Positions 12,001 to 28,384 of a DNA stretch of 64,000 nucleotides are shown one piece after another; within the stretch, counting starts at the first letter, position 1, and the number at the start of each line of letters is the position of its first letter. Below the pieces are notes generated by a model. It made no database searches and was not told the origin of the DNA. It saw only the letters and a program-made list of their open reading frames with translations. Made by a program: the position numbers and the translations under genes. The DNA lies in contig JAWPMT010000002.1 of NCBI GenBank assembly GCA_033344775.1, positions 898,685 to 962,684 of the forward strand, read 5' to 3'. The DNA is from Cytophagales bacterium (GTDB lineage Bacteria; Bacteroidota; Bacteroidia; Cytophagales; Cyclobacteriaceae).

Positions 12001-12141
12001 TCGTCTTACTATTCGAATCCAGTGACCGGGCATATTATTGAAGCTACACATTTTTCTATCCTGAAAGAACCCGCATTAACAACACTTGAACCGATCATTA
12101 ATGAAGCCGTGCTTGATGGAGCACTTAAACTAGAATCTTAA
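1..12141 (+). CDS. Non-ribosomal peptide synthetase, 5'-truncated by the window edge; visible architecture (A)-T-E-C-A-T-C-A-T-C-A-T-TE (terminal synthetase)
   Basis: Frame +1 is open from nt 1. Nt 1-162 translate to [25 protein letters not shown]..., an A-domain core, so the track Met at 163 is internal. Carrier-protein Ser codons: GGDS 457-459, GGHS 4960-4962 and 8050-8052, GGNS 11140-11142. E-type [12 protein letters not shown] starts at 991, with FNYLGQFD downstream. C-domain His motifs: HHILMDGWC from 2398, MHHIISDG from 5500, MHHVISDG from 8590. A-domain TSGSTGxPKG cores at 3811, 6898 and 9991. TE GWSFG has its Ser at 11539-11541. Stop codon at 12139-12141. Confidence 0.95.
   Translation: [4046 protein letters not shown]
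355..1900 (+). other. NRPS carrier (T) plus epimerisation (E) domains of the module whose A domain starts upstream; boundaries approximate
   Basis: [13 protein letters not shown] carrier motif. [18 protein letters not shown] and [10 protein letters not shown] are E-domain signatures rather than C-domain ones. Confidence 0.8.
1981..5080 (+). other. NRPS module C(DCL-type)-A-T; boundaries approximate
   Basis: [11 protein letters not shown] and HHILMDGWC directly after an E domain indicate a D-donor condensation type. A-domain cores: [61 protein letters not shown]. Carrier motif [12 protein letters not shown]. Confidence 0.8.
5100..8170 (+). other. NRPS module C(LCL-type)-A-T; boundaries approximate
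   Basis: [15 protein letters not shown] and [14 protein letters not shown] (C domain). [39 protein letters not shown] (A domain). [12 protein letters not shown] (T domain). Confidence 0.8.
8195..11255 (+). other. NRPS module C(LCL-type)-A-T; boundaries approximate
   Basis: [15 protein letters not shown] and [12 protein letters not shown] (C domain). [39 protein letters not shown] (A domain, same pocket-window strings as the first full module). [12 protein letters not shown] (T domain). Confidence 0.8.
11323..12138 (+). other. NRPS type-I thioesterase (release) domain
   Basis: [10 protein letters not shown], the GWSFGG nucleophile elbow, and a C-terminal ..[11 protein letters not shown] His region. 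It is the last domain before the stop. Confidence 0.8.
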
Positions 12142-12200: not shown

Positions 12201-13892
12201 ATGAATGACAAAATAATTTGTGGCCTGAAATTAACTCATGATGGAGGAATTGCGGTCATCAAAGGGAATCAACTGATTTTTAGCATAGAAATGGAAAAAC
12301 TGAATAACAATCCAAGGTTCAGTTCCATTCCTGATCTATCGATCGTGAAACACATTCTGGCGGAATATGACCTGGAAATTGAAGATGTTGACCACTTTGT
12401 CATCGATGGCTGGTCAGGACTGGAAGACTCGTTTATCGAGGCTCGATCGAATGGAAACCCAGTCAAATTGGCTGTTGCAGGATACCGGGAAAAGGCCCTG
12501 TCGGCCAACGTTTTTCAACCTTTTGATCATGACTCACTTCCCATAGATAACCACGTGCTGGCATATTCCAGCTATATGCATGTGACAGGGCATATTGCCG
12601 GAGCCTATTGCAGCAGCCCTTTTGCCAGAGCAAATCAAAGCAGTTACATCCTGGTATGGGATGGTGGGATGTTCCCAAGACTCTATTACTTTGATGCACA
12701 GAAAATTGCCTTTCAAAACCTGGGGCCAATTAATTTTCTGATTGGTAACTTCTACCAGGTATTCGCCAGTTATTTCCATCCATTTAGCGTCGCAAATCCG
12801 CAACAAAAGGAAGACCTATCAATCGCAGGCAAAGTGATGGCCTATATCGCAAAGGGTGAAGTGGTGCCTGATTTGTTGGATGAATATAATTCAGTGCTCA
12901 AAGAGCATTTGGATCTGTCTTTGGACTTTGTTCACACTTTTGTAAAACATCTGCACAATAGACGCATCAAAGAAAAATATAGAGAGGAGGACATGCTGGC
13001 AACGATGCATCAGTTTCTTCAGGATCAATTGCTTGAAGGGCTCAAGAACAAGTTGAGCAAATACCCGGCGAACGAAAGAAACCTTTGTTATGCCGGTGGA
13101 TGTGCATTGAACATCAAATGGAACAGCGCGCTTCGAAATAGTGGATTGTTAAAAGAATTATGGATTCCACCTTTTCCAAACGATTCTGGCAGTGCTATTG
13201 GAGTAGCATGTGCGAAGATGATCACAGTATCCCCAGACCGATGGTTAGATTGGCGTGTGTTCTGTGGCCCCAAGGTGCAGGATAGCCTGGAAATGGATCA
13301 GGAATGGTCATCAATGGATTGTCCAATTGAAACCCTTGCGGGTATGATCGCCGAAAATGAAGACCTTCCGGTCGTGGTGCTTCAAGGTAATGCCGAAGTG
13401 GGGCCGCGTTCGTTAGGAGGGAGGAGTATCATTGCTTCCGCACGGAGTACCTCCATGAAAGATATCCTCAATCGTGTTAAAGATCGTGAGCCCTATAGAC
13501 CTGTGGCACCAATATGCCTTGAGGAAGATGCTCCTGAAGTATTTAATCCTGGCAGCCCTGATCCATACATGTTATTCGATCACATGGTGAAAGAAAGTTG
13601 GTTGCAAAAAATTCCGGCTGTATGTCATTTGGATGGTTCCGCAAGGTTACAAACTGTAAATAAGGCAGAAAATCCTGTTATTTATCGTTTGTTAGCTGAG
13701 TATAAAAGACATACCGGAATTCCGGTTTTGTGTAACACCAGCGCCAACTTTAAAGGCAAAGGGTTTTTCCCCGATGTTAAAAGTGTGATGGAGTGGGGTG
13801 AAGTAGATTTAATATGGAGCGATGACAAATTGCACTACCATAAGCACGCAAAATCCCTCGTCAAACAATACGATACCTTAACCGCTACTTAA
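12201..13892 (+). CDS. Carbamoyltransferase, NodU/CmcH/TobZ family
   Basis: N-terminal ICGLKLTHDGGIAVIKGNQLIFSIEMEKL (ASKHA-like start of the family). Central YAGGCALNIKWN. C-terminal GPRSLGGRSIIASARSTSMKDILNRVKDREPYRPVAPI matches the Carbam_trans_C signature as I remember it. It starts 59 nt after the NRPS stop on the same strand. Confidence 0.85.
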   Translation: MNDKIICGLKLTHDGGIAVIKGNQLIFSIEMEKLNNNPRFSSIPDLSIVKHILAEYDLEIEDVDHFVIDGWSGLEDSFIEARSNGNPVKLAVAGYREKALSANVFQPFDHDSLPIDNHVLAYSSYMHVTGHIAGAYCSSPFARANQSSYILVWDGGMFPRLYYFDAQKIAFQNLGPINFLIGNFYQVFASYFHPFSVANPQQKEDLSIAGKVMAYIAKGEVVPDLLDEYNSVLKEHLDLSLDFVHTFVKHLHNRRIKEKYREEDMLATMHQFLQDQLLEGLKNKLSKYPANERNLCYAGGCALNIKWNSALRNSGLLKELWIPPFPNDSGSAIGVACAKMITVSPDRWLDWRVFCGPKVQDSLEMDQEWSSMDCPIETLAGMIAENEDLPVVVLQGNAEVGPRSLGGRSIIASARSTSMKDILNRVKDREPYRPVAPICLEEDAPEVFNPGSPDPYMLFDHMVKESWLQKIPAVCHLDGSARLQTVNKAENPVIYRLLAEYKRHTGIPVLCNTSANFKGKGFFPDVKSVMEWGEVDLIWSDDKLHYHKHAKSLVKQYDTLTAT

Positions 13893-13957: not shown

Positions 13958-16396
13958 CTATTCAGCTTTAATGGAGTCTACCGGATTGATCATGGCTGTT
14001 TTCACAATCTGACGTCCTACAGTCAAACAGGAAATGATGAACAAGGTCAGTATTGGTACCAAAAAGGCCAGGATTCCCAGTTGCATCCTGAATGCGAAAT
14101 TAGAAAGCCAATCCTGGGCCACATAAATAACAATTGGGATTGAGATTACATTGGCCACAATTAGTGTAATCACATATTCTTTTGACAATATGAGAATCAG
14201 GTGATTAACATCCGCCCCGAGAACTTTTCGAATACTCATTTCTTTCACTCGCTGAGCGGCAGAAAAGGTGACGAATGCAAACAGGCCTAAACATGCAATA
14301 AAAATCGCGAGTATGGAGAAGATCAGGAAGATCTGGCCAAACTGTACATAAGACTTGTATTGCTCGTTGAATTCGTCATCCAAAAAGTAGTAATTGAATG
14401 GATTCCCCCGAAAGATATCATTGTAAGAATTTTGTATGTGGACAATGGTTTCGGAGATATTACTGGGACTCATTTTAAAGGAGAAATAGCGCTTAGCCTG
14501 ATTACTAACCACAAATAAGATGGGCATGTGATCTTCTCTCAATGACTGCCAATGAAAATCTTTTAAGACACCAGACACATACACCGTATCCTTTCTGATC
14601 AAGATCCGTTTATTGAGTGCTTCTTCTCCCTGGCCAAGACCATATACTTCAGCTGCCTTTTCATTGATAATCACATGAGGACGACTGCCAGTAAGATCAC
14701 TTTCCTTAAATGGTTCACCGGCAAGGAAGTCAAATTCATAGGTCGTAAAGAAACTCGGATCAACATACGAAATGCCGCCAGGTTTATTCAGACTTGGCTC
14801 ATCACCTAATTTTCTCATGCCAACAACTGCATTGTGACCTTTCCCGGGGATTGTGCCGGAACTGGTGGACGAAGCAATTGATGCCAATCTGGAGGATTCT
14901 GTTTTGAAGGCCACAAGGTCTGATGGCAATTGTTCTTCGTTGGAAACGATCTCTGGTCCTTTAACAATCAATACCTGTTCCATATCTACACCCAAATCCT
15001 GAGTTTTCATGAATGTAATCTGATTGTAGATGATGAATGTGCCTGAGATGAGTAGGGTAGAAATGAGGAATTGGAATGCCAGTGAGGCTTTTCTGATATT
15101 GAACCCCGATCCTGAATTGGACAGCTTAAATCGTTGAATATTGATCGCCTTGAAAGAGGAAATGACTACTGCAGGGTAAATGCCAGAAGCAAAAGAGCTA
15201 ACGATGATAAAAAGTATGAAGGTTAGCCAGAATGATGCTTGTTGTACCAGCAAAAAGGCAAACTTGGTTCCAAGAATCTGATTGAGATAAGCAAGTAATG
15301 CTGCGGTAATGAACAAAGCAATCACAGCGGAAATGACATTGATCAGAAACGATTCGATAATAAACTGCTTCCGCAATTGGCCTTTCGTAGAACCCAGCGC
15401 CTTTCGAACACCCACATCTTTTGCCCGCTTGGTAGAGCTGGCAATGGAAAGATTAATGAAGTTGAGCCATGCCACAATCAATATGATGATAGCAATGAGA
15501 ACAAGGGCACGTATTTCCTGGATATTAGCTGTACTGGTTGCTTGATCTTCTAAATGTTCGGAATAGAGATAGATATCTGGCAGGGGTTGTAGTGCAAACT
15601 CCCAGGTGATGTTATAGTGTTCCAGCGTTTTTCCGAAATTCTCGTAAACCATTGCGGCAATCTGCTCCTCAACATCGGCTGTTTTACTTCCATCTCTTAA
15701 TTTGAAATAGGTGAAAAAATTGGTTCTTCCCCATCTGCCTCGACCATTTTGATAGCTCTCACTTTCTAAGAGAGATTGCATTGGCATTAAAAAGTCGAAC
15801 TCTAAATGACTGTTTCCAGGAATCGTCTTCAGAACACCTGTTACCTTAAAACTGGCAGTAACCCATCCATCGACCTTAAGGGTTTTTCCTATAGGGTTCA
15901 CTTTTGATCCAAAATATTTGTCTGCCATCTCTTCCGTAAGAACGATACTATATTTATCGTCCAGCGCAGTTGATCGATTGCCTTGCTTTAATTCAAAGTC
16001 GAACATCTCTAAAAAAGTACTATCCGCGAAGAGCATGTCTTCCTCCATGAAGGGATTATTCTTTTCGGGATTATTCACCACTGCTCCGAAATACTGTGGG
16101 TGGATCCTGGTGTAACTTTCAATATCAGGTATATCAAGAAGTGCTTGAGGAGCTATAGCATAAGAGGTTTTGGCTTGTTGTCTGTTAACCTCCCCATTTT
16201 CCAGTGCTCTTAGGGTCAGTCGATAGGTATCCTGAGCATTGGTGTGAAAACCATCGTAACTTGACTCAAATTGGACATATTGTAAAATGGCTAAACATAC
16301 CCCCATGCCAATGGACAACCCAAGGATATTGATCAGTGAATAAGACTTATTCCTGATGAGGTTTCTTAATGAAATTCGGAGGTTCGTTTTAAACAT
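13958..16396 (-). CDS. ABC-transporter permease, FtsX/MacB-like with duplicated FtsX domains
   Basis: 812 aa. The N-terminus LRISLRNLIRNKSYSLINILGLSIGMG is typical of Bacteroidota FtsX-family permeases. Two 4-TM blocks are separated by large extracytoplasmic regions. No partner ATPase gene is adjacent. Confidence 0.8.
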   Translation of the reverse strand: MFKTNLRISLRNLIRNKSYSLINILGLSIGMGVCLAILQYVQFESSYDGFHTNAQDTYRLTLRALENGEVNRQQAKTSYAIAPQALLDIPDIESYTRIHPQYFGAVVNNPEKNNPFMEEDMLFADSTFLEMFDFELKQGNRSTALDDKYSIVLTEEMADKYFGSKVNPIGKTLKVDGWVTASFKVTGVLKTIPGNSHLEFDFLMPMQSLLESESYQNGRGRWGRTNFFTYFKLRDGSKTADVEEQIAAMVYENFGKTLEHYNITWEFALQPLPDIYLYSEHLEDQATSTANIQEIRALVLIAIIILIVAWLNFINLSIASSTKRAKDVGVRKALGSTKGQLRKQFIIESFLINVISAVIALFITAALLAYLNQILGTKFAFLLVQQASFWLTFILFIIVSSFASGIYPAVVISSFKAINIQRFKLSNSGSGFNIRKASLAFQFLISTLLISGTFIIYNQITFMKTQDLGVDMEQVLIVKGPEIVSNEEQLPSDLVAFKTESSRLASIASSTSSGTIPGKGHNAVVGMRKLGDEPSLNKPGGISYVDPSFFTTYEFDFLAGEPFKESDLTGSRPHVIINEKAAEVYGLGQGEEALNKRILIRKDTVYVSGVLKDFHWQSLREDHMPILFVVSNQAKRYFSFKMSPSNISETIVHIQNSYNDIFRGNPFNYYFLDDEFNEQYKSYVQFGQIFLIFSILAIFIACLGLFAFVTFSAAQRVKEMSIRKVLGADVNHLILILSKEYVITLIVANVISIPIVIYVAQDWLSNFAFRMQLGILAFLVPILTLFIISCLTVGRQIVKTAMINPVDSIKAE

Positions 16397-16845
16397 AATA
16401 GAGGGTTGATTTATTGTTTGTTTCGAAGTTATTCAAAATATAAAAAGAATATGGATGAACAATTACTGTTAATTCTTATGAGATGACGAATCTGGTTTCC
16501 CGATCAATAATGAGTGAGATAGGTGTAAATGCCTGCTTACGTCAATTACAAAAAAAGAATACACTAATTTTTTTAGTGAAAATTTTGGGTGAATTTATCA
16601 TTTTTTTGTCAGTATTTGAAGGAAGAAAATATAGAAAAAAAGTGCTTAAAATAACTTTAATGGCGCATATAGCAAGGTTATACCTCTTTTTTCCATATGT
16701 TAAAACATACATATATCATGTAGGTAAGAAAAAAAAGATCAGACAATGTTTACCATCAAATTGAGAGGAAAATGTTTGCCATTTATTTAGCAATATTTTG
16801 ATCGGTTTGCCTAGATTACAGCTGCTAAAAACAAGTCACATTACA

Positions 16846-17589
16846 ATGAGTGTATTTATCGAACAACAGTATGAGTCTTACTCAGAAGATGACCACAAAA
16901 CATGGAAGGAATTATATGAAATTCAAAATCAGGAACTGATCTCATATTCTTCAGAAGGATACCAGTTGGGCTACCGAAAAATAGCACTTCCGGAGGGTAG
17001 GGTGGTTAATTTGGACAAGCTTAATGAAAAGCTAGGTTCTTTTTGCGGATGGCAGGCGGTAGGTGTTCGCGGCCTGGTACCAACCAAAGAATTTTTCTTT
17101 ATGTTGATGAAGAAGAATTTTCCTGTTTCAGTTCAAATCAGAAAGCCTCAAGAATTGGGTTTTAGCAAGTTACCCGACATCTTTCATGATGTGTGTGGCC
17201 ATGTGCCGATGTTATTGAATGATACATTTTCGGAATTTGTTAAGAAGTTTAGTGAGTTGGGACTGAAACACTTCGAAAATGAAAAGGCCGTTCTTTATTT
17301 ATCCCGGCTCTATTGGTATACTTTGGAAATGGGTCTGATTTATGAAGAAGGAGAGGTCAAACCATACGGAGGAGCGATCCTCACATCAAGAAAGGAAATT
17401 AAGAACATCTATAGCAATACCAGTAGCAAGCATGATTTTGATGTGTATGAGCTTATCAATACCCCATATGATAATCTGAAATTGCAAACTGATTACTTTG
17501 TGATTGATAGTTACGATCAATTGTTTACCGGTTTGGAGCAATTAGAAGTGATTATCGAAGAGGAGTTTAATCTGGAAGAAACGCACTAA
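16846..17589 (+). CDS. phhA: Pterin-dependent aromatic amino-acid hydroxylase (phenylalanine hydroxylase family)
   Basis: PDIFHDVCGHVPML (2-His iron ligands), LSRLYWYTLEMGLI (Glu ligand region) and YGGAILTSRKE. The track start at 16798 is a TTG; the in-frame ATG at 16846 (MSVFIEQQ...) is the more likely start. Confidence 0.8.
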   Translation: MSVFIEQQYESYSEDDHKTWKELYEIQNQELISYSSEGYQLGYRKIALPEGRVVNLDKLNEKLGSFCGWQAVGVRGLVPTKEFFFMLMKKNFPVSVQIRKPQELGFSKLPDIFHDVCGHVPMLLNDTFSEFVKKFSELGLKHFENEKAVLYLSRLYWYTLEMGLIYEEGEVKPYGGAILTSRKEIKNIYSNTSSKHDFDVYELINTPYDNLKLQTDYFVIDSYDQLFTGLEQLEVIIEEEFNLEETH

Positions 17590-17680
17590 AAATTTAGAAG
17601 CGATTATACTTTGGGCTGAGTCCCAAATGCATTTCCTTCAAAAATATAGGTCCAGGTTTTTAGTCTTTGAATATTAACAC

Positions 17681-20600
17681 TTGAATAGTAGACTGTTTCG
17701 TCGACTCAAAACAACCTTCGAATCAATGGAGATCACATTAAGCGCCTTTCGAAAAGGTATGCTACTGGCACTCATATGTTTAAGCCAACAATTTCTAGCG
17801 ATTGCTACGGATCAAAAGTTGCTGGATAAAGTTGATCAGGAAGTGACAAGATTGATGAGGCGTGGAGATATTCCTGGTTTAAGTCTGGTCATTCACTTCG
17901 GGGATGAGCAAGTGATCCGAACGTATGGATTTGCCGATCTTACAAACCAGGTTCCGGTGAGTGACCAGACACTTTTTCAGCTGGGATCTTGTAGTAAAGC
18001 ATTCACCGGGCTGGCAGTCACTCTGCTCGAACAGCAAGGTAAGATCGATCTCGATGCAAGGGTGGCCCATTACCTGCCGTGGTTTAGGGTGAGATTCGAA
18101 GACTCCATGGTGCAGGTGACTTTACGGCAACTTATGCATCATACGAGTGGGATTCCCTGGGAGACGATCGCAAAAATTCCGGAGAGCAATGATCCCGATG
18201 CCCTGCAACTGACCGTGAAAAAAATCATTGACCAGCAACTTGATGAATTGCCAGGAAAAGAGTTCCAATATGCCACGATCAATTACGACGTGTTGGCGTT
18301 GGTGATACAGGAAGTTACCGGTCAACCCTTTGAGGACTTTGTAAAGGATCATGTCTTGGCACCACTACAGTTGCGAAACACCTCCATTGGTTCTCCAATA
18401 AATGAGACACGTATGTCCAAGGGGTATAAATTAGGTTTTTTTAATGCCAGGGAATACGAAGCTCCGGTTTATAGGGGCAACAACGCCGCTGGATATATGA
18501 TCTCGGATATTCGGGACATTGGACGATGGATGCAGTTGCAACTGGGACTGGTTGAAACCAACCTAAGTGAGGCGATCTTACAAACACATCAACGAGACAG
18601 ATCTGTAGGGCTTCATGGCCAATCTGCTTACGCCAGTGGGTGGAACGTGGCGTTTGATGGTACTGAAGAGGTATATCACGGTGGGATGAATCCGAACTTC
18701 TCCTCTTATTTTGCCTTTCGGTCAGAGGAAAAGATCGCCGTTGGGGTCCTGACCAATGCCAGTAGTAATTACACAGCAGTGCTGGGAGATAGGGTCATGA
18801 AATTGCTGGCTGATGAAGATATTGAACTGGAATTTGATCCGGGCGATGGTAATGACAAGACTTACTCGGGGATAGCGATTGCATTAGCGTTATATGTCCT
18901 GATCGTTTTAGCTTTCCTGATACTGATCATTGTGCAAAGTATCCAGGGGAAAAGACGCGTGAAATGGCCCGCACCCTCGGATTTCGGAGCGTTTGCTAAA
19001 GCCCTGTTATTTATTGCCCCGTTTCTTGGGGGTCTGTATATATTTCCGGGAGCTGTAGTGGGCTTTACCTGGGATGCGATCCTGGTATGGAGTCCCGAAA
19101 GCCTGATGATCATGCTGGGAGTCCTGTTCCTGGCCATAGGATTGTCGATGCTGGTGTATCTGGTGAGTTTGTTTTTATCTGAACCTAATGATTACAAAAG
19201 GAAAGCTCCCCGGATATTATTGATCAGCATCCTCTCCGGTCTTGCCAATGTAGCGGTCATCATTATCGTGACATCTGTGATCAATTCGGATGTTGCCCTC
19301 AAATACCTGATTTTCTACTACGGTCTCGTCATTAGCCTTTACTTATTTGGTCGTCGATTTGTGCAGATCAGCCTCATCAAATTTACCAGGGAACTCGTTT
19401 ATGATCTCAGGATACAGTTGACGAGCAAGATCTTTTCTACTTCCTACGACAAATTCGAACGGATCCATCGGGGTAGGGTGTATACCGCCCTCAATGATGA
19501 TGTTGCTACCATCGGCAATTCAACTTCGCTGTTTGTCAATTTGATCACCAGCTTCATTACCGCATTAGGTGCCTTTATATACCTGGCAGCTATCGCTTTC
19601 TGGGCCACCATGCTCACCATTTTTCTGATCATTACACTTTCCACCATTTATTATTTTGCAGTGCAAAGCACAAATATCTACTTTGAGCAAGCGCGTGATT
19701 CCAGAAATGTATTCATGGGGCTGATCAATGGGATGATCGATGGGTTCAAGGAAATTAGTTTGCACCGGAAGAAAAAGCTTGAATACAAGGATGATCTTGC
19801 CGCAAGTGCCCGGGAATTCAAAGACAAGACCATGACCGCCGATATTCGTTTTGTCAATGCTTTTCTGATAGGAGAATCGCTGCTTGTGATCCTCTTAGGG
19901 GTCGTTTCCATTGGAATGACAGAGATGTTTCCCAATATTCAATTCTTCACCGTCATGAGCTTTGTCATCGTGCTGCTCTATCTGATCGGACCAGTCAATA
20001 GCATTTTAAGTGCAGTTCCGGCGCTGATGAATTTAAGAATATCCTGGAACCGGATTAATCAGTTCATCAGCGAGATCCCCGCGAACCTGGACCTGGATCA
20101 AAAGACGGAGCCTGAATTCGAACAGGTAGAAAGACTGGAAGCAAAAGGGATCACTTATCAGTTTAAGAATGCAGAGGGAAAAGCTGCCGGCTTCCGGGTG
20201 GGTCCAATTGATCTGGAGGTAAACAAAGGGGAGATCTTGTTCATCATCGGTGGGAATGGAAGTGGTAAGACCACCCTTGCCAAATTGTTGCTGGGACTCT
20301 ACTTGCCAGATGAAGGTGAAATAACTGTGAATGATACAGCATTGAAAAATGCGGAGCTCAGCGAATATTACTCGCCTGTATTCACACCTCCCTACCTTTT
20401 CGAAAAGCTCTACAACTGCGATACAACAGGACAGAAAGAGAAAATTGAGCAATATTTGCAGGTATTGGACCTACAGGAAAAAGTGACAATCGAGAACAAC
20501 CAATACAGTACCATCAGGCTTTCGGGCGGTCAAAAAAAGCGCCTGGCCTTGCTCCAATGTTATTTGGAGGATTCACCTATCTATCTCTTCGATGAATGGG

Positions 20601-20797
20601 CGGCAGATCAGGATCCCGAATACCGTAAATTCTTTTACCGTACATTGCTCCCTGAAATGAGAGAGATGGGAAAGATCGTCATTGCGATCACTCATGATGA
20701 TCACTACTTCGATGTGGCGGATAGAGTAATGAAGATGAATCAGGGACATCTCGAGTTATACTCCAAAGGTCAAATTCTGGCACCTTCTGAGTTGTAA
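17681..20797 (+). CDS. Fusion protein: periplasmic S12/beta-lactamase-fold serine peptidase, 3 TM helices, then a cyclic-peptide-type ABC exporter (TMD + NBD)
   Basis: Signal peptide MLLALICLSQQFLAIA. S-x-x-K motif SCSK with the Ser codon at 17987-17989. FQYATINYDVLALVIQEVTG and YHGG motifs of the S12/AmpC-like fold. Hydrophobic helices start from about aa 395. NBD Walker A GGNGSGKTT (about 20249), signature LSGGQKKRLALL, Walker B IYLFDEWAADQD. The track start is a TTG; ATG 17726 (MEITLSAF) is an alternative start. Confidence 0.85.
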   Translation: MNSRLFRRLKTTFESMEITLSAFRKGMLLALICLSQQFLAIATDQKLLDKVDQEVTRLMRRGDIPGLSLVIHFGDEQVIRTYGFADLTNQVPVSDQTLFQLGSCSKAFTGLAVTLLEQQGKIDLDARVAHYLPWFRVRFEDSMVQVTLRQLMHHTSGIPWETIAKIPESNDPDALQLTVKKIIDQQLDELPGKEFQYATINYDVLALVIQEVTGQPFEDFVKDHVLAPLQLRNTSIGSPINETRMSKGYKLGFFNAREYEAPVYRGNNAAGYMISDIRDIGRWMQLQLGLVETNLSEAILQTHQRDRSVGLHGQSAYASGWNVAFDGTEEVYHGGMNPNFSSYFAFRSEEKIAVGVLTNASSNYTAVLGDRVMKLLADEDIELEFDPGDGNDKTYSGIAIALALYVLIVLAFLILIIVQSIQGKRRVKWPAPSDFGAFAKALLFIAPFLGGLYIFPGAVVGFTWDAILVWSPESLMIMLGVLFLAIGLSMLVYLVSLFLSEPNDYKRKAPRILLISILSGLANVAVIIIVTSVINSDVALKYLIFYYGLVISLYLFGRRFVQISLIKFTRELVYDLRIQLTSKIFSTSYDKFERIHRGRVYTALNDDVATIGNSTSLFVNLITSFITALGAFIYLAAIAFWATMLTIFLIITLSTIYYFAVQSTNIYFEQARDSRNVFMGLINGMIDGFKEISLHRKKKLEYKDDLAASAREFKDKTMTADIRFVNAFLIGESLLVILLGVVSIGMTEMFPNIQFFTVMSFVIVLLYLIGPVNSILSAVPALMNLRISWNRINQFISEIPANLDLDQKTEPEFEQVERLEAKGITYQFKNAEGKAAGFRVGPIDLEVNKGEILFIIGGNGSGKTTLAKLLLGLYLPDEGEITVNDTALKNAELSEYYSPVFTPPYLFEKLYNCDTTGQKEKIEQYLQVLDLQEKVTIENNQYSTIRLSGGQKKRLALLQCYLEDSPIYLFDEWAADQDPEYRKFFYRTLLPEMREMGKIVIAITHDDHYFDVADRVMKMNQGHLELYSKGQILAPSEL

Positions 20798-20811
20798 ATC
20801 CCAAATCAGGA

Positions 20812-21624
20812 ATGAATATGTTGAATGATACGGACGATCGGGATCAATCAGCTGAAGAGCAGGTGATTGGGATTGTTGGAGGTATGGGGCCCCAAGCAGG
20901 GATAGAGCTGGCCAATGATATTTTCCGACTTACGGAAGCTAAGAAAGATCAGGAGCATCGATCGGTGATCATGATGTCATATCCCGGGCAGCTAGGAGAC
21001 CGGACTGCTTACATCGAGGGTACTGAGTTGATAAATCCGGCGTTCAATATTGCGAAGGTCATTCAAAAGTTGGAATTGTCGGGAGCAGATGTCGTTGGAA
21101 TCGCTTGCAATAGTTCCCATGTTCCTGCCATCTACAATGTAATACTAGATGAACTGAAAAAGTCATCAAGTCGGGTAAGGCTGCTGAACATGCCCAAAGA
21201 AACTTGTAAACACATCAAGGAACATTTCCCAGAAGCTGCAAAAGTAGGCGTCATGAGTACGAACGGTACTTATAAAGCAGGAGTATATGTGACACTCCTT
21301 GAGCAGGCAGGACTTCAGGCAGTCGTTCCAACATATTCGTTTCAAAATGAAGTGATTCACGACATGGTCTACAATCCCAGTTATGGGATCAAATCCTGTC
21401 CAGAGGGGATCACAGATGAAGTCATCGACTTGTTGGGACGAGCTTTTTCTTTTTTTCAGGAGCAGGGAGTAGATGCAGTCATATTAGGTTGTACAGAAAT
21501 TCCATTGGCCCTGAAGCAATACCCTAAGACAAAACAAATACCCCTGTTGATCAATCCCAGTGAAATATTGGCCAAAGCCCTCATCGCAGCGACAGAAAGG
21601 CGACAACTGGCTCATGGCGAGTAA
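20812..21624 (+). CDS. Asp/Glu/hydantoin-family amino-acid racemase (aspartate-racemase-like)
   Basis: IGIVGGMGPQAG, DQEH, GDRTAYI, and the two catalytic-Cys motifs IACNSSH and LGCTEIPL. It starts 14 nt after the upstream stop. Confidence 0.8.
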   Translation: MNMLNDTDDRDQSAEEQVIGIVGGMGPQAGIELANDIFRLTEAKKDQEHRSVIMMSYPGQLGDRTAYIEGTELINPAFNIAKVIQKLELSGADVVGIACNSSHVPAIYNVILDELKKSSSRVRLLNMPKETCKHIKEHFPEAAKVGVMSTNGTYKAGVYVTLLEQAGLQAVVPTYSFQNEVIHDMVYNPSYGIKSCPEGITDEVIDLLGRAFSFFQEQGVDAVILGCTEIPLALKQYPKTKQIPLLINPSEILAKALIAATERRQLAHGE

Positions 21625-21995
21625 AGATTAACTTGAAGGGGAGGAAGGTTCTTTACGACTGTTCTGTAAACATTAGGTTGATAAGTTCATTTAAGAGGAT
21701 TCGAAGAATTCCATCAGAGTGCTGACAGTAAGCATAGGGTAAACCACGAAAGAAAAGGTCCTTGCTGGCGCGCGTTTTGAACGCGTGGCTTCTATTAATA
21801 TAAATAAGCTCTTGGCCTAGGAAATACAATGCTCTTGTTTAGGACTAAAATTGTGACCAAGAACCGGAATCTTGTTAATTCAGGCTTTTTGACTTTCTAA
21901 GCCAAAATGTTAACGTCTTTTTGTTCTAAAGAGGGGGTTGAAGCCACTCGCCGTAAAATAAAAAAAGATTCTCAGATTTCTCTGAGAGGCTTTTT

Positions 21996-22085
21996 GCGTC
22001 CTACGCGGACCGGAACCGGACGAGACTCGAATCGCACCGGCGACCCGGTCACGACCTCCTGCGTGACAGGCAGGAACATATTGGT
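21996..22085. other. GC-rich structured segment with tRNA-like pieces; identity unresolved
   Basis: It stands out from AT-rich flanks. It is preceded by the hairpin CTCAGA-TTTC-TCTGAG (about 21970-21985) with T/A runs on both sides. On the minus strand it contains CCTGC-CTGTCAC-GCAGG (anticodon-arm-like) and a GCGATTCGAGTCTCG T-loop-like string. On the plus strand it contains ACCGG-CGAC-CCGGT. I could not fold a canonical cloverleaf. Confidence 0.3.
22018..22042 (+). repeat. Left copy of the imperfect direct repeat flanking the integrase gene
   Basis: GGACGA-gactcga-ATCGCACCGGCG. Compare 23490-23515, GGACGA-tcatatgg-ATCGCACCGGCG. Confidence 0.6.
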
Positions 22086-22186
22086 TTGATATGTGTTAAA
22101 TGTCTTTAAAATGGCCAATTGGGAGGTTTATGAATTTGTGAAATACCATATGAAACCATATTTTGCGTGCAAATCGCGTGCACGTC

Positions 22187-23425
22187 ATGAGTACAACACT
22201 AAAATTCGTCCTCGATACCCGAAGAGCTAAAGATAACGGAACCTATCCATTACGACTAAGAATTATGCATAACCGTGTCAATTCTCATATCTCATTGGGC
22301 TATTCTCTTTCAGAGAAAGAATGGGACGGCAAGAATGAGCGTCTTAGATCATCCTCGAAATCTTACGGCAATGTTAGCCGCTTCAATAACGATTTGCAAT
22401 CACGTAAAGCCAAGTATTTCGAGATCATTGGAGAATTGGAACGAGATGGAATTCTAGATAATTTGAGTGCTTCCCAGCTCAAGGGCCACCTAGAGAAGAA
22501 ACCCAAAGGAAACGTGAGTTTTGGTGATTTCATTCAGCAACAATACGAACTGAAGCTGAATGCTAATAAGTCAGGAACTGCTCGAACCTATAAGGATCTG
22601 GCAAACTTCCTAAGAAGATACAATGATGGAAATCTCAATCTCAGTTTTGTCGAGATAGATTACAATTTTCTGGTTCAATTGGAACATCAACATATTGGTA
22701 AAGGGAATCAATACAGTTCACTTTCGGTTTACCTGCGAACCCTTCGTTCGCTTTACAATGAAGCCATTAAAATGGGCTTGGTGAATGAGAAACATTATCC
22801 GTTTACGAAATACAAAATCAAAGAAGGACAACCCAGAAGAAGTGCTTTGACCAAGAAGAATTTTCAGCTAGTAAAAAAGGCTGAGTTTAAACAGGGGAGT
22901 GCCAAGCAGATTGGAAGAGATTTCTACCTGGCCAGCTTCTACTTACACGGCATGAACTGGATGGACATGTGTTTGCTGAGATATGAGAACCTATCTGATG
23001 ATCTAAATCGGTTGCAATATGTTAGGAAGAAAACTGGTAAGCCATTTAATCTCAAAGTATCGGAGCCTCTTATTGATGCCATAAACTCATTGAAAACCTT
23101 CGATGCTTCCAATCGAAAGGACTTCATTTTTCCCGTCTTAAAGCTCGAAGATGATCCTGAGAAGTATGTCACTAAAATCAACAACCGCAGGCTTAAAATC
23201 AATAAGTATCTGAAAATGGTTGCCCAAGACCTGGATATTTCAAGCTTCTCCATCTATTCCGCTCGACATACTTATGCTACGATGTTATGGGAAAATTCTG
23301 GATCTGCTGCAGTCACTCAACGCAGCCTGGGCCACAAGACCGAGGAGCAGACGCAGGAGTATCTTTCTTACTTTGGGAATGATAAAGTGGACAGTGCTTC
23401 GGATGATTTGTTTGAGATACTTTAG
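22187..23425 (+). CDS. Tyrosine site-specific integrase (Bacteroidota Arm-domain / SAM-like / catalytic core type)
   Basis: The N-terminus TLKFVLDTRRAKDNGTYPLRLRIMHNRV is typical of the Bacteroidota Arm DNA-binding domain. C-terminal YSARHTYATML ... LGHKTEEQTQEYL carries the R-H-R-Y-type catalytic motifs. The track start at 22163 is a TTG; ATG 22187 is the likelier start. Confidence 0.85.
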   Translation: MSTTLKFVLDTRRAKDNGTYPLRLRIMHNRVNSHISLGYSLSEKEWDGKNERLRSSSKSYGNVSRFNNDLQSRKAKYFEIIGELERDGILDNLSASQLKGHLEKKPKGNVSFGDFIQQQYELKLNANKSGTARTYKDLANFLRRYNDGNLNLSFVEIDYNFLVQLEHQHIGKGNQYSSLSVYLRTLRSLYNEAIKMGLVNEKHYPFTKYKIKEGQPRRSALTKKNFQLVKKAEFKQGSAKQIGRDFYLASFYLHGMNWMDMCLLRYENLSDDLNRLQYVRKKTGKPFNLKVSEPLIDAINSLKTFDASNRKDFIFPVLKLEDDPEKYVTKINNRRLKINKYLKMVAQDLDISSFSIYSARHTYATMLWENSGSAAVTQRSLGHKTEEQTQEYLSYFGNDKVDSASDDLFEIL

Positions 23426-23489
23426 TCCAGGACTGCTTTCAAATTCACCAAATTTCGATGTTGTTAACCTTCTACCCCCGTAGGCGCTG

Positions 23490-23515
23490 GGACGATCATA
23501 TGGATCGCACCGGCG
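23490..23515 (+). repeat. Right copy of the imperfect direct repeat flanking the integrase gene
   Basis: It shares the 6-nt and 12-nt arms with 22018-42. It lies 65 nt after the integrase stop. Confidence 0.6.
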
Positions 23516-23606
23516 TTGCCAACGAAATCCAGGTTTGTAATAGGACCACCTAAACACCGGCCCGTTCTCAAATCTACCGCTTCAGTAGCATTCATATTTT
23601 CTGATA

Positions 23607-23650
23607 TATCATTTGATATATATTTAAATAAATTATTATCATTTGATATA
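23607..23650 (+). promoter_or_regulatory. Two perfect copies of a 14-bp palindromic box, TATCATTTGATATA, 30 bp apart; candidate operator
   Basis: Copies at 23607-23620 and 23637-23650. Each contains the inverted repeat TATCA-tt-TGATA. The second copy ends 15 nt before ATG 23666. Confidence 0.4.
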
Positions 23651-23665
23651 ATCTAATTGATTAAT

Positions 23666-24298
23666 ATGAAGTCTTCAACGGCCTCTTTGATAGTTTCTAT
23701 TTGGTGTCTGTTTATACTTTTTAAGGTCGAGGGACAAGGTCGCCCGGACACAGTGAAACTTAGGAATAATTACAACACCTTAAAAAATCTATTGAGTACA
23801 GATAGCGCCAATCTTGATTTATTACTTGATTTGGCGCAGACATCCAGAAAATTGAGCAATGCCGACGAGGCTTTACTATACCTTAATCAAATAAAGGATC
23901 TCGATTCACTTCATTTGGAGGCCAGGAGTTTGGAAGCTTACGTGCTTAGAGACCAGGGTGAACTTCAAAAATCTTTTGACCTATGGCTTAGGGTCGGAGA
24001 GGAGATCAACCAGTTGCCAAATGCGGAGAGAATTCATTACGATCTGGCCTTACTTGCCATGAAACTGGAACGCTATGAGGTAGGAATATCTTCATTAGAA
24101 AAAGCTATCGCACTAGATGATACAAAAGCCAATTATTTTCTTAACCTTGGGGTTTGTCGAGCCAGGTCAAAACGCCTGAAGGAAGGTTGTTCGGATTGGA
24201 AAAGAGCGCATGAGCTCGGTGCTACACAAGCTGAAGCGCTGATACGAAAATATTGTCCGGTTACCTGCAAGGAGTTATTCACAAATTGTGAAGATTAG
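23666..24298 (+). CDS. Secreted TPR-repeat protein
   Basis: Signal peptide MKSSTASLIVSIWCLFILFKVEG, followed by TPR-like 34-aa helical repeats (AEALLYLNQIKDLD, YDLALLAMKLERYEVGISSLEKAIALD, ANYFLNLGVC). ATG 23666 is in frame with the track TTG at 23657. Confidence 0.6.
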   Translation: MKSSTASLIVSIWCLFILFKVEGQGRPDTVKLRNNYNTLKNLLSTDSANLDLLLDLAQTSRKLSNADEALLYLNQIKDLDSLHLEARSLEAYVLRDQGELQKSFDLWLRVGEEINQLPNAERIHYDLALLAMKLERYEVGISSLEKAIALDDTKANYFLNLGVCRARSKRLKEGCSDWKRAHELGATQAEALIRKYCPVTCKELFTNCED

Positions 24299-24531
24299 AT
24301 TACATTTCCGCGATACGAAATGAATCAATCCTCTTCAATCAACATTTTACAGTTTTAGAAAGAAGTCCAGCAATTTTTTGCGTAATTAAAGTAAATTATT
24401 TGAATCAATGCATAATAATTTATCATCAACTTTATCGATTGGACAGTCGATGATAATAACTCCATCTACACCATTTTTCTTCAATCGGTCATAAGTTTTA
24501 ATGGTAGGTCAAGTCAATGAAAAATTAGTCG

Positions 24532-24702
24532 TCATGAGTTGTCAATTCTTTTCTTCAATTTCCTGAAGGCTTGATCTGGATCAAATCTTTTAGTAGGGGC
24601 TTCTTCCGAATCCGATGCCAATGGCTGTGTCAGGTCTTTTGCATCCATTGCCTGATCTTCGGACTTTTCACCGGACGCTTTTCGACTTTTTTTCTTTGAC
24701 AT
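24532..24702 (-). CDS. Small, highly charged hypothetical protein (56 aa from MSKKKSRK...)
   Basis: Supported by the ORF only. The composition is low-complexity Lys/Ser/Asp/Glu-rich. Its 5' end is partly duplicated at 29738-29792. Confidence 0.25.
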   Translation of the reverse strand: MSKKKSRKASGEKSEDQAMDAKDLTQPLASDSEEAPTKRFDPDQAFRKLKKRIDNS

Positions 24703-24971
24703 AAATAATGAAGGCTTTGGCGAGGCTTCCAAACAATGGATAGACAATGACCACCGTTCTATCTAACCAATAGCAAGTTAGGAATAATTTCCATTTACCC
24801 CTAGAGGGAGGAGGCTGGATCATCATTCAGTGCAAAAAATCACGTTTGTTGTCAGGTTGCTGCAGGGGTAGAATCATCGGTTCTCCAAACGGATGTCGGA
24901 GGGCGAAATGGCAATATGCTATCGCAATATTTGCAAGTTGGAACACAAAATAGGAGGATATCCAAATGCAT

Positions 24972-27900
24972 TCAATCCAGCACACCATCCCGGAAATAGT
25001 CGCTGGGTTTCTTTCCGAATCGAAGTTCGTACCGCTCTGAAAAACGGCTCGAGTTGTTAAACCCTGCCGCAAGGCCGACCGCCGTGACATTGCCATACAC
25101 TTGGTCTTCCAGTAGTTTTCTGGCTTTTTGCAAGGCGATTTCAAATTGATATTGTATAGGCGTAAGGCCTGTCAGTTTCTTTAGTCTTCTCTGAAACTGC
25201 CGCTTACCCAGATTGAAGTGATCCGCAAGGTCCGCGACCTGGAAGTCACTGTTTTCAAGCTCTTGTAAGATTACTGATTCCACTTCTTTGAGCCACTCCA
25301 GGTCTGATTTGTACATTACGGTCGACGAATTGGCCTGATGGGCAATATTTCCTTCTTCTACTGGTTCCTCCTCGACCATTTCCAGAGCTCCTTCTTTTCT
25401 GGTTTGATACCTGGTAATCAGATTTTGGACCCTTGCTTTGAGTTCTTGAGGCGAAAATGGTTTGGTGAGGTAATCGTCTACGCCAATCGCCAGGGCTTGC
25501 AATTTACGGTCTTCAAAATTGAGGGCAGTGAGCATGACCACCGGGATGTTGCGAAATTGCTCAGACGATTTCATGTGTTCCAGCAAGCTGTATCCGTCCA
25601 TCTCTGGCATCATGACATCCGTAATGACCAGGTCAAATGGCTCTGCTGACAATTTGTCCAGGGCTTTTTTTCCGTTTTTGGCCAGGGAGATGTCATAGTC
25701 ACCCGCGAGCAACTGACTGACATATTGCCGCATGTCCGGATGGTCCTCGACGATCAAAACCCTAAACGATGATGTTTCGGATATAGGTGAGGGCAGGAGG
25801 TTGTCTTCGGCTGCTGCCCAGGTCTCAACTACATCACCTTCCTCCTGGGGTGACCTGTCGTCTGGTGCTTCGGCAGGTTTGCATGGAATTTCAAGCTTAA
25901 AGGTGCTTCCATGGTCCAATGCACTTTCGACAGTTAGGTCACCTCCCATGCGTCCTGCCAGCTCATAAGCCAATGCAAGTCCAATACCAGTACCGCCCTG
26001 GATGGGAGCATCGGGCTGCTTGCTCTGGAAGTACCGGTCAAAGATGTGCGGAAGATCATCCGGTGCAATTCCCTGACCCGTATCGATCACCTGGATCATC
26101 AGGTTTTCATTTTGCCGAGACAGGGCCAGTTCGACCTCACCTCCGGCAGCGGTGTATTTGATAGCATTGAAGAGCAAGTTGTTCAGTACTTTTTCTATGC
26201 GCTGGGGGTCCAGTAAGACCCAGGTTGGCAACTTCTCGTCGATTGAATGTCTGTAGCGGATCTCTAGTTGCTCCGCCATGGAAGTATAGTTGGAAGAGAT
26301 CCGCTGGATGAGCGACTTCAATTCAACAGGTTCTTCCTTCAACGCTATGTTGCTGGATTCCATCTTCGACAGGTCAAGGATGTCATTCACGAGGCCTTTC
26401 AATTTACGCGTGTTGCGCTGCATGAGCTGTAGCGTTTGCGTGGTTTCAGCAGGAGGATAAGCGCCTTCTTGATCAATCAGGTTATCCAGAGGACTGCTGA
26501 TCAACGTCAAAGGTGTTCGCAATTCGTGAGAGATATTGGCAAAGAACCGTGACTTAGTTTTTTCGAGTGTCGCGAGCTCATTTTTCTGCTGCTCAATCTC
26601 CTTATTCCTTGTCTGAAGGGTATTGTTGGCTTTTTGCTTGGACTGGTAGTAACGGAAAAGGATAAAAACAATGACCAGCAGTAGAATTACACCCGCCAGC
26701 ATCGCGTATTGGTTGTTTGTTTGACGTTTTATGGTTTGGTCAGCGATCAGTTGTTGTTGTTGATTGGCATACTGAATGGAATCTTTCTCCTGTTCAAATT
26801 GATGTTCAGCCTGAAGCTGGATCATGGCCTTTGTATTACTTTCATTGAACACACTATCGGAGTACTGCTTATAGGTGATATGGTTTTCGTAGGCGGCCTC
26901 AAAGTTGCCGAATTCCGCCTCAACCCTGGCCAGGTGCTCGGTGCTGTAAATGATCACTTGAGGATCACCGGTCTGAAATCCTATTTCTTTTGCCGATTGG
27001 AATTGCAACCGGGATTCAATCAGTTTTCCTCGTGCCTGATAAACCTGCCCCATGGTGATCATAGGATAAGGTTCCATATATTTGAAATTGAGTTCTCTTG
27101 CAAGTTTGAGAGCTGCGGAGGCATAGTAGAAGGCACTATCAAGATTGTTGAGGTAGAAATAGGAGTCGGCAATGTTGTTCATTGAAATGACAACATGACC
27201 ATTTCTCAATCCCGTCTCTTCCTTGATCTTCAGGGATTTCAAGTCATATAATAACGCTTTTTCATAATCACCTTGTACGGCGTAATTCACGCCGATATTG
27301 GCAAGTTGCTGAGCCATACCTCGTCTGTCATTTAGTTCTGTGGATATAGACAAAGCTTTTAGCAAATAATCGACAGCCGCGCTGAAATGTTTTTGTCCTG
27401 AATAAGCTGATCCAAGGTCTGAATAAACTTTCATCATCGCGCTTTGGTCACCAAGGCTTTCAGCCAGTTTTAAGGCGGCGAAGCTATATTCAATCGAAGA
27501 CTTAAAGTCGCCCAATACCTGTAGGATCATAGCAAGTCGAGAATATACCGCCAATAGCTTTTGTTGCTTCCCGGCCTGGACATAGTAATCGACACATTCG
27601 AGGCAGAGCTGATAAGCTTTTCTGAATTCGTCTCTTCTCTTGGCCAAATCGCACAGCCCCATCTTGGCATCACCTTTACCTGTTGTGTAGTCGTGCATTT
27701 GAGCAAGTTCGAGCATATCCTGGTAATTGCCTTCGGAGGCATCATAGTTACCGTAGGAATAGTTATAATCTCCCTGATTGGAGAGGGCATTGATCTTTAG
27801 TAATGGATAGTTAATTTCATCCGCCAGCAGCATTGATCTGTTGATATATTGCATGGCCTGCGTGGAATCCAACGATTTGTAGGCGGTTGTCATGTTGTCG

Positions 27901-28043
27901 AGAATGTCCTCTGCTGCCTCTTCCGATAGCCCATCCAGTTGGGTTTCTAAAATATTCAAAAGGGAATCAAAAGTCGGGTGTTGCTGTGCTGGACTGAATT
28001 GAAGGACGGATAAGAAAAGAATGCCAGTAAACAAATAGTTCAT
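24972..28043 (-). CDS. Single-polypeptide two-component regulator: signal peptide, periplasmic TPR sensor, TM, HisKA/HATPase, receiver, AraC-type HTH
   Basis: MNYLFTGILFLSVLQFSPAQ signal peptide. About 10 TPR-like repeats. TM helix YAMLAGVILLLVIVFILF. H-box FFANISHELRTPLT. LNNLLFNAIKYT and DTGQGI..GGTGIGLALA (N/G boxes). Receiver VLIVEDHPDMR..DLVITDVMMPEMDG. C-terminal AraC HTH (LADHFNLGKRQFQRRLKKLTGLTP...). Confidence 0.9.
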   Translation of the reverse strand: MNYLFTGILFLSVLQFSPAQQHPTFDSLLNILETQLDGLSEEAAEDILDNMTTAYKSLDSTQAMQYINRSMLLADEINYPLLKINALSNQGDYNYSYGNYDASEGNYQDMLELAQMHDYTTGKGDAKMGLCDLAKRRDEFRKAYQLCLECVDYYVQAGKQQKLLAVYSRLAMILQVLGDFKSSIEYSFAALKLAESLGDQSAMMKVYSDLGSAYSGQKHFSAAVDYLLKALSISTELNDRRGMAQQLANIGVNYAVQGDYEKALLYDLKSLKIKEETGLRNGHVVISMNNIADSYFYLNNLDSAFYYASAALKLARELNFKYMEPYPMITMGQVYQARGKLIESRLQFQSAKEIGFQTGDPQVIIYSTEHLARVEAEFGNFEAAYENHITYKQYSDSVFNESNTKAMIQLQAEHQFEQEKDSIQYANQQQQLIADQTIKRQTNNQYAMLAGVILLLVIVFILFRYYQSKQKANNTLQTRNKEIEQQKNELATLEKTKSRFFANISHELRTPLTLISSPLDNLIDQEGAYPPAETTQTLQLMQRNTRKLKGLVNDILDLSKMESSNIALKEEPVELKSLIQRISSNYTSMAEQLEIRYRHSIDEKLPTWVLLDPQRIEKVLNNLLFNAIKYTAAGGEVELALSRQNENLMIQVIDTGQGIAPDDLPHIFDRYFQSKQPDAPIQGGTGIGLALAYELAGRMGGDLTVESALDHGSTFKLEIPCKPAEAPDDRSPQEEGDVVETWAAAEDNLLPSPISETSSFRVLIVEDHPDMRQYVSQLLAGDYDISLAKNGKKALDKLSAEPFDLVITDVMMPEMDGYSLLEHMKSSEQFRNIPVVMLTALNFEDRKLQALAIGVDDYLTKPFSPQELKARVQNLITRYQTRKEGALEMVEEEPVEEGNIAHQANSSTVMYKSDLEWLKEVESVILQELENSDFQVADLADHFNLGKRQFQRRLKKLTGLTPIQYQFEIALQKARKLLEDQVYGNVTAVGLAAGFNNSSRFSERYELRFGKKPSDYFRDGVLD

Positions 28044-28308
28044 AGGATTGGGGTAAGGTCACATGTTTACCAGGAACTTAAGTTCCGTAAATAAATATAG
28101 AAAGAATTGGGTGCTGGAGCCTCCTTCTTAGGAGCAATTACGAATTTGACCCCCTCATTTGATGTGTATATCTGAATTTGCGTGGCCACTGTCACCACGG
28201 TGCTTCTATTTCAGATGCGCAAAGCGTGATGCCTTTGGTCAGGACTGTCGTATGGTTTTTCCTCGAAGAGGGCGTAAAAACCTATTCCAATCTCTGCCAA
28301 TCCCAAAA

Positions 28309-28384
28309 TGACGCGAATTGAAAGTTTTTGACACGAATTGAAAGCGGAAGACGCGAAATGAAATATGATGTCGCGAAATGACTG
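28309..28384 (+). promoter_or_regulatory. Four direct repeats on an exact 20-bp phase; candidate transcription-factor binding array
   Basis: TGACGCGAATTGAAAG (28309-24), TGACACGAATTGAAAG (28329-44), AGACGCGAAATGAAAT (28349-64), TGTCGCGAAATGACTG (28369-84). The array lies in the 723-bp divergent region between the 24972-28043 regulator (-) and the sigma-factor side (+). Confidence 0.55.

Follow-up and report, generated by a model that had tools for sequence, protein, structure and literature searches.

A window of 64,000 nucleotides from a Cytophagales bacterium of the Cyclobacteriaceae (assembly GCA_033344775.1, contig JAWPMT010000002.1, positions 898,685 to 962,684, forward strand) was analysed around an open reading frame (ORF) at 17681–20797 (+ strand; all positions are those of the window) that encodes a beta-lactamase-fold peptidase fused to an ATP-binding cassette (ABC) exporter. 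The gene stands 5.6 kb downstream of a non-ribosomal peptide synthetase (NRPS) gene on the same strand. Initiation at a TTG at 17681 would give 1038 amino acids (aa) and initiation at an ATG at 17726 gives the 1023-aa product (MEITLSAF..) deposited in the protein database (P0001). The latter is the likelier start, because homologues align from about this position and the database product begins there, and residues are numbered on the 1023-aa form unless stated otherwise. The gene and its parts are:

17726–20797, + strand: peptidase–ABC exporter fusion gene, ZmaM-like (from domains and homology; alternative start TTG at 17681)
17726–17806, + strand: predicted Sec-type signal peptide or N-terminal anchor, aa 1–27, with the boundary A-I-A/T-D (read from the sequence)
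17831–18769, + strand: S12 (beta-lactamase-fold) peptidase domain, predicted to be periplasmic (Pfam PF00144; alignment to ClbP 7mdc; family table)
18878–19165, + strand: three-helix, ClbP-type transmembrane (TM) domain, aa 385–480 (ClbP alignment; hydropathy)
19217–19975, + strand: ABC exporter transmembrane domain (TMD), type IV / ABCB-like fold (Pfam ABC_membrane, TIGR01194)
20204–20602, + strand: nucleotide-binding domain (NBD) core with Walker A GGNGSGKT and signature LSGGQ (Pfam ABC_tran, 1.1e-24)

The N-terminal signal-like segment reads MEITLSAFRKGMLLALICLSQQFLAIA, followed by TDQ. Behind it, the Pfam Beta-lactamase model (PF00144) matches residues 51–363 of the 1038-aa form with E = 5e-65, and the S12 motifs are present as S88-C-S-K91, Y182-A-T184 and Y317-H-G-G320, with S88 (codon 17987–17989), K91 and Y182 as the catalytic residues by homology. 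Three strongly hydrophobic helices (aa 385–403, ~425–445 and 462–480) lie between the hydrolase domain and the exporter TMD, and the Lys/Arg-rich loops that follow helices 1 and 3 agree with a hydrolase domain on the periplasmic side and an exporter that begins in the cytoplasm. Against the NCBIfam model TIGR01194 ('cyclic peptide export ABC transporter'; cut-off 286.2 bits), the C-terminal ~530 aa score 353.6 bits; this half has no close solved relative, with PDB matches to ABCB1 and MsbA only (E = 1e-27 or weaker). The E-values of the domains exclude chance.

The best PDB relative of the fusion protein is full-length ClbP (7mdc, 7mde, 7ul6; E = 1e-52), in an alignment that opens with the hydrolase domain and takes in all three TM helices, up to chain residue 458 (ClbP numbering is chain index + 30, from a residue-by-residue alignment to 7mdc). 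For the soluble domain alone, ClbP (2.6e-47) and Staphylococcus aureus Flp (5.6e-47) score about equally, so it is the diagnostic residues and the TM domain that decide the assignment. In the ClbP-type prodrug peptidases, position 188 is Ser or Thr, where the wider S12 family has Asn, and position 257 is His or Asn; strict conservation of N331, the residue that recognises the D-Asn side chain, is confined to this group; W460 and W466 of the TM2–TM3 linker are strictly conserved, with W466 essential; and E92, which orients N331 and excludes D-Asp, is described as 'highly' and not 'strictly' conserved (Velilla et al. 2022, PMC9889268). At the ClbP positions the window protein has S95, K98, Y186, T188, N257, N331, W460, W466, K240 and F243. 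The catalytic triad S95-K98-Y186 corresponds to its S88, K91 and Y182, ClbP S188 to T184, H257 to N248, N331 to N322 (within H-G-G-M-N), and the linker tryptophans to W449 and W455. In a MAFFT alignment of 120 relatives with ClbP, S95, K98, Y186, T188, N257, H327, G329, N331, W460 and W466 are invariant (T, N and N in 120/120 at positions 188, 257 and 331), whereas Flp has N at 188 and L at 331. The position that departs from the pattern is E92, where the window protein has Q85 (17978–17980).

Set against its known relatives, the window protein shares the peptidase and three-helix TM domain with ClbP, XcnG (xenocoumacin) and AmiB (amicoumacin), and its catalytic, D-Asn-binding and acyl-contact residues all align with those of ClbP. 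These enzymes are unfused proteins of ~450–500 aa, whereas the window protein is fused to its transporter; colibactin, for instance, is exported by a separate protein, ClbM (PMC9889268). ClbP also differs in having S188, H257, E92 and K235, where the window protein has T, N, Q and M. With Flp/FmtA-like proteins and class C beta-lactamases there is a common fold and S-x-x-K/Tyr catalytic core, but those proteins have Y-x-N and lack both a counterpart of N331 and a TM domain of the ClbP type, and AmpC-type lactamases score far lower (E ~1e-20; 108 bits against the 415-bit cut-off of the class C model NF033085). The C-terminal 530 aa are above the family cut-off for TIGR01194 exporters of the SyrD/PvdE/YojI type, which have neither the peptidase at the N-terminus nor the three additional helices. 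A locus scan with NBD patterns picked up many ABC exporter homologues of this peptidase-less kind, at 29–36% identity.

The nearest described counterpart appears to be ZmaM of the zwittermicin cluster. A tblastn search of plasmids with the peptidase and TM part found as best matches 'cyclic peptide export ABC transporter' genes of Bacillus thuringiensis and B. cereus megaplasmids (37% identity, E = 1e-87). On pBMB431 (B. thuringiensis) the match can be equated with ZmaM, because zmaJ is named in the region and the gene order is that of the zwittermicin cluster: hybrid NRPS/polyketide synthase, LLM oxidoreductase, ABC fusion, HAD phosphatase, NRPS, with the fusion between ZmaL-like and ZmaN-like genes. 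The window protein and ZmaM are colinear from end to end (39% identity over 1025 residues), both encoded in an NRPS cluster and both built as signal peptide, S12 peptidase, three TM helices and TIGR01194-type half-transporter, with T188, N257, N331, W460 and W466 in common. EdeA (edeine) and PamJ (paenilamicin) are of the same subtype as ZmaM by the literature, and a peptidase followed by a 'cyclic peptide transporter' TMD-NBD in a single 1023-aa chain lies within the ~1000–1100 aa that define it. ZmaM differs in its Bacillus host (in the Gram-negative Bacteroidota, cleavage would take place in a true periplasm) and in having E92 where the window protein has Q. By every sequence criterion except E92, the window protein thus classifies as a ClbP-type prodrug peptidase of the ZmaM/EdeA/PamJ subtype.

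By analogy with these systems, the fusion is likely to be a ClbP/ZmaM-type prodrug-activating peptidase–exporter, which would export a non-ribosomal peptide and remove an acyl-D-Asn cap from it. A preliminary description of the locus, made from the letters and ORFs alone, had arrived at the same reading, and the four-part order it gave (signal peptide, S12 domain, three helices, TMD-NBD exporter), together with the motifs SCSK, YHGG and Y-A-T and the Ser codon at 17987, is borne out by Pfam, TIGR01194 and hydropathy. Comparison with other S12 enzymes also falls on the side of ClbP: AmpC is far more distant, and Flp, equal on the soluble domain, lacks T188, N331 and the TM domain.

The NRPS gene upstream places the fusion in the expected setting:

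1–12141, + strand: NRPS gene, truncated at its 5' end by the window edge (Pfam, motif parse, Stachelhaus-type codes)
1–3300, + strand: first visible NRPS module, with partial adenylation (A) domain, thiolation (T) domain (GGDSI) and epimerisation (E) domain, then condensation (C) domain (HHILMDG) (tblastn)

Its reading frame is already open at window base 1 and encodes, in order, an A8-A10 tail, T(GGDSI), E(HHLVMDG, EGHGRE), C(HHILMDG)-A-T-C-A-T-C-A-T, ending in a canonical thioesterase (TE; GWSFG, Pfam Thioesterase 2.7e-20), with core motifs intact throughout the visible 12 kb. An A-T-E module followed by C and a canonical TE are therefore present as had been described. The complete A domains carry, in order, the codes DAEHNGSVTK, DAGEVGAIVK and DAEHNGSVTK (pockets at 3943–4239, 7030–7326 and 10123–10419), in each of which one pocket residue is acidic (E239 or E278), a hint at cationic substrates and a cationic product. 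Codes of the form DAEH.G..T recur in two relatives (L004, L018), with DPEHIGKIS in L014 and DAEYVGEVT in L033. Orthology of the window NRPS with any of the fetched clusters was considered and rejected: the modules are mosaic, at 30–50% identity, the later ones resembling the L014 and L004 clusters at 45–50%. Orthology therefore gives no basis for predicting the product of this mosaic assembly line. A protein search with the first 1100 aa of the NRPS returned only matches shorter than 1921 aa at up to 52% identity.

Evidence for the predicted substrate comes from the clusters of relatives. All 18 near-complete homologue loci of the first scan adjoin NRPS genes, mostly directly after a gene that ends in TE. 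At two loci, L020 and L001, the next downstream NRPS gene starts with a fatty acyl-AMP ligase (FAAL)-like AMP-binding domain, an acyl carrier protein (ACP), a C domain and an A domain with the code DLTKIGEV(C/G), continued in L020 by T (GGDSI) and E domains, while the L001 locus ends inside the A domain. A search with these two as queries found a stand-alone starter of ~2150 aa, FAAL-ACP-C-A(DLTKIGEV(G/C))-T(GGDSI)-E, in 17 Bacteroidota genomes (loci L105–L119, L133 and L136; e.g., L106:9938–16441), with a TauD-type oxygenase or a MacB-type permease as the next gene. The GGDSI motif is typical of carriers that feed E domains. DLTKIGEV(G/C) is a listed Asn signature (PMC12283262), and ZmaO, on which the code extraction was checked (C-A(DLTKIGEVG)-T(GGDSI)-E), carries a nine-residue code identical to that of the Bacteroidota starters. 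ZmaO begins with its C domain, whereas the Bacteroidota starters are separate proteins with their own FAAL-ACP before C-A-T-E.

Starter and fusion occur together. In six genomes the starter lies upstream of the fusion on the same contig and strand at 46–63 kb, a distance computed from the contig ranges between the starts of the two genes (Fulvivirga marina, 63.0 kb; a Cytophagales metagenome-assembled genome (MAG), 45.7 kb; Chryseosolibacter histidini, 50.7 kb; Flavobacterium jejuense, 57.1 kb; a Bacteroidota MAG, 57.9 kb; a Chryseobacterium MAG, 57.1 kb). The two genes adjoin in L020/L105, L113/L199 and L001, and in three more genomes they are on different contigs. At least 11 of the 17 starter genomes also carry the fusion, the fusion list consisting of the best 80 of at least 563 matching DNA stretches found in the peptidase-only genome scan. 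A natural control is provided by L019, where a nearby NRPS gene begins with the non-Asn module C-A(DIWELTAIC)-T-E and the peptidase is dead (S95E, K98E, Y186H, N331G). Degenerate peptidase domains were seen at L019:9998–11365 and L032:1742–3157 (S95D), both in proteins that keep the TM Trp pair and the exporter.

It had been proposed that the visible A-T-E module carries the cleavable D-residue, which is probably wrong: judged by its domain sequences, this module is probably not the leader module. The starter protein stops directly after its E domain in 17/17 relatives, whereas in the window the reading frame continues from the E domain into the next C domain. By tblastn, the window E domain is 42–47% identical to post-starter E domains (L106, L116, L118, L108, L112, L114) or to a third-module E domain (L136), and only 28–34% identical to the E domains of the starters themselves. 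The C domain that follows it is likewise 41–50% identical to the C domains after post-starter E domains, with L011 also among the matches. The A8-A10 tail, all that is visible of the first A domain, matches Asn and non-Asn modules in overlapping identity ranges (41–53%) and is uninformative as to specificity. In the clusters of six relatives the post-starter module is itself A(Asn)-T-E, so that their peptides would begin with acyl-D-Asn-D-Asn.

The remaining genes of the cluster and its downstream edge are:

12201–13892, + strand: NodU/CmcH-type carbamoyltransferase, tailoring (Pfam Carbam_trans_N/C; NCBIfam NodU 639 bits, below the 1000-bit cut-off)
13958–16396, − strand: duplicated MacB/FtsX-type ABC permease (Pfam MacB_PCD x2, FtsX x2; ADOP/DarB-like, below cut-off)
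16798–17589, + strand: phenylalanine-4-hydroxylase-like, pterin-dependent aromatic amino-acid hydroxylase (Pfam Biopterin_H; NF008877 238 bits, cut-off 247)
20812–21624, + strand: aspartate-racemase-family gene (TIGR00035 141 bits against a cut-off of 93; best PDB match 1jfl, Asp racemase)
22163–23425, + strand: Bacteroidota-type tyrosine integrase (Pfam Arm-DNA-bind_5, Phage_int_SAM_5, Phage_integrase)

The racemase gene begins 15 bases past the fusion gene, and hydroxylase, fusion and racemase form an apparent operon, with the hydroxylase first. In relatives, the MacB/FtsX-type permease adjoins the starter gene in L117 (same Pfam make-up), and ORFs matched on size only stand in the same place in L107, L109 and L115. 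Two relatives' loci (L001, L002) have a truncated aspartate kinase beside the racemase in place of the carbamoyltransferase. The flanking genes suggest varied precursor and tailoring chemistry around a constant export and activation core. The integrase gene begins 539 bases past the end of the racemase gene and marks the downstream edge of the cluster, which may be part of a mobile island; no tRNA genes were found in 16000–30000.

As a ClbP/ZmaM-type system, the cluster would be expected to work as follows. The NRPS would build an inactive pre-peptide in the cytoplasm, whose N-terminus, by analogy with the relatives, would be a fatty-acyl-D-Asn cap laid down by a FAAL-ACP-C-A(Asn)-T-E starter. 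The ABC half-transporter would homodimerise and carry the lipidated pre-peptide across the inner membrane, where, at the periplasmic face, the acyl chain would rest on the TM2–TM3 linker (W449/W455) and the D-Asn side chain would be read by T184 and N322. On this outer side of the inner membrane, S88 would then hydrolyse the amide bond that follows D-Asn, so that N-acyl-D-Asn and a mature peptide whose N-terminus is free enter the periplasm. The MacB/FtsX-type permease may, speculatively, aid the exit of the product from the periplasm.

Several points weigh against this reading. No starter module was seen in the window, where the NRPS runs off the 5' edge; a starter of this cluster would stand outside the visible sequence, which makes it the main uncertainty of the mechanism. 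The integrase directly after the cluster leaves room for rearrangement or loss of the starter. The soluble-domain score is no better for ClbP than for Flp, and the Q at the E92 position, by analogy with ClbP, may mean a specificity that differs from strict D-Asn. A search of the literature on Bacteroidota ClbP-type systems also found nothing relevant.

The Q at position 92 gives rise to the alternative that survives best, though it is unlikely: the same machine with another leader, in which the cap residue would be D-Asp, or D-Asn and D-Asp, with Q relaxing or switching the specificity and the racemase tied in. In ClbP, E92Q keeps wild-type D-Asn activity and gains activity on D-Asp (PMC9889268). 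Of the 120 relatives, 79 have Glu and 41 have Gln at position 92, and 11 of the 41 Q proteins, the window protein included, have an E protein as nearest neighbour, which indicates that Q arose repeatedly; outside the Bacteroidota, Q occurs in 1/23. The Asp racemase, the gene next to the fusion here, is found no more than 10 kb from the fusion at 21 of the 33 Bacteroidota loci with full flanks, often as the very next gene, and in 0/23 loci of Aminicenantes, Clostridia, Paenibacillus, Brevibacillus and others (the Paenibacillus locus L035 has a weak racemase homologue); it is likewise absent from the zma region viewed. Its linkage is somewhat commoner with Q (12/16 against 21/49, p = 0.04, in a test that ignores phylogeny), but the association is gone when only the fully flanked loci are counted (p = 0.21), and a link between Q92 and the racemase is not claimed. 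Against another leader, N331 and T188 are unchanged, no columns that co-vary with position 92 were found in the family alignment, and in L020, the one locus where a Q-type fusion can be seen together with a starter, that starter carries the usual Asn code DLTKIGEVC and an E domain. Two possible partners of the substitution were tried and rejected: K235M, as K235 (the salt-bridge partner of E92 in ClbP) is not conserved even in E-type members, and the G/C variant at position 331 of the starter code, as both code variants pair with E.

It is quite unlikely that the target of the peptidase is the finished product or a foreign compound, as in self-resistance, proofreading or hydrolytic tailoring, with the ABC part doing no more than exporting the peptide. 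S12 enzymes do include D-peptidases, esterases and beta-lactamases, the soluble domain ties with Flp, and a TE and further transport genes are present in the cluster. A role of this kind would leave unexplained the specific conservation of T188, N331, W460 and W466, which are not general S12 features, as well as the co-occurrence of the starter genes and the decay of the peptidase where the starter is non-Asn (L019). That the cluster is a remnant, in which the fusion is intact but an integrase-linked rearrangement separated or removed the starter and left the peptidase without its cognate substrate, is very unlikely. The integrase stands close by and the NRPS modules are mosaic with respect to the relatives, but the catalytic and binding residues and the NRPS core motifs are all intact, and the integrase is outside the cluster, on its downstream side. 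A SurE-like off-loading cyclase of the penicillin-binding-protein type, which had already been judged less likely, and an ordinary class C beta-lactamase share the superfamily fold but are effectively refuted, given a domain that has a signal peptide and a predicted membrane tether and is not free-standing, an NRPS with a canonical TE, no SurE-type chain among the 60 best PDB relatives, and, for the class C lactamases, Y-A-T in place of Y-x-N and HGG in place of KTG beside the low AmpC score.

The prodrug-activating peptidase–exporter reading can be extended to an unlikely but more specific proposal for the Bacteroidota, in which a FAAL starter and a ZmaM-like fusion would be combined with a dedicated racemase, the E-to-Q change would retune the cap (D-Asn only or also D-Asp), and the racemase, and sometimes an amidohydrolase, would serve the supply or recycling of the cap. 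The role of the racemase, a conserved neighbour in the Bacteroidota, is not explained by the starter, which has its own E domain. In Aquimarina, a 505-aa amidohydrolase (L108:19588–21102; also L112 and L114) scores 489 bits with NF006560/PRK09061 and stands between the starter and the next NRPS gene. PRK09061 was once titled D-glutamate deacylase; if that function applies, the enzyme could deacylate the released N-acyl-D-amino-acid cap. Were the proposal true, the Bacteroidota version would be a natural specificity switch with a salvage branch that is undescribed for ClbP-type systems, and the natural E/Q variation offers a ready-made test of the published E92Q result.

The fusion belongs to a large group. 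Hundreds of full-length relatives at 52–67% identity occur in Fulvivirga, Chitinophaga, Pedobacter, Aquimarina, Maribacter and other Bacteroidota, forming at least 120 sequence clusters (90% identity) at ≥52% identity to the window protein. Most of the 271 candidates analysed with the ClbP structure are described as coming from Firmicutes, and some from Proteobacteria and Actinobacteria (PMC9889268). Intact ZmaM-like fusions were also seen in several Candidatus Aminicenantes (Acidobacteriota) MAGs (L232, L235, L238, L239, L245, L247, L249, L251), one of which has three copies. The kind of protein and its mechanism are already known from zwittermicin and colibactin and the mechanism is unsurprising; what is new relative to the literature searched is the size of the Bacteroidota clade, the stand-alone FAAL starter and the racemase partner. 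The use lies in genome mining and in correcting predicted structures: if the cap is removed on export, the real products would be without the fatty acid and the first D-Asn, and structures predicted from colinearity would have an incorrect N-terminus, among them those of lipopeptides synthesised on the basis of bioinformatic predictions. The fusion gene would also mark clusters whose products are likely to be toxic to the producer and worth isolating, and ClbP-type inhibitors or Ser mutants could trap the pre-peptides.

Beyond the integrase, the window holds regulators, proteins with type IX secretion system (T9SS) tails and glycosidases that are unrelated to the cluster. Two paralogous proteins of ~1020–1050 aa (24972–28043, − strand; 30091–33246, + strand), each with tetratricopeptide repeats, a histidine kinase, a receiver domain and an AraC helix-turn-helix, flank an extracytoplasmic function sigma factor gene (28767–29321). 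A run of large + strand ORFs occupies 33854–59430, of which 33854–35425, 38211–40106, 40269–43028 and 51911–53116 have no Pfam match and 43702–45900, 46692–50570 and 53128–59430 carry T9SS C-terminal sorting tails, the last encoding 2100 aa with a metallophosphatase domain.

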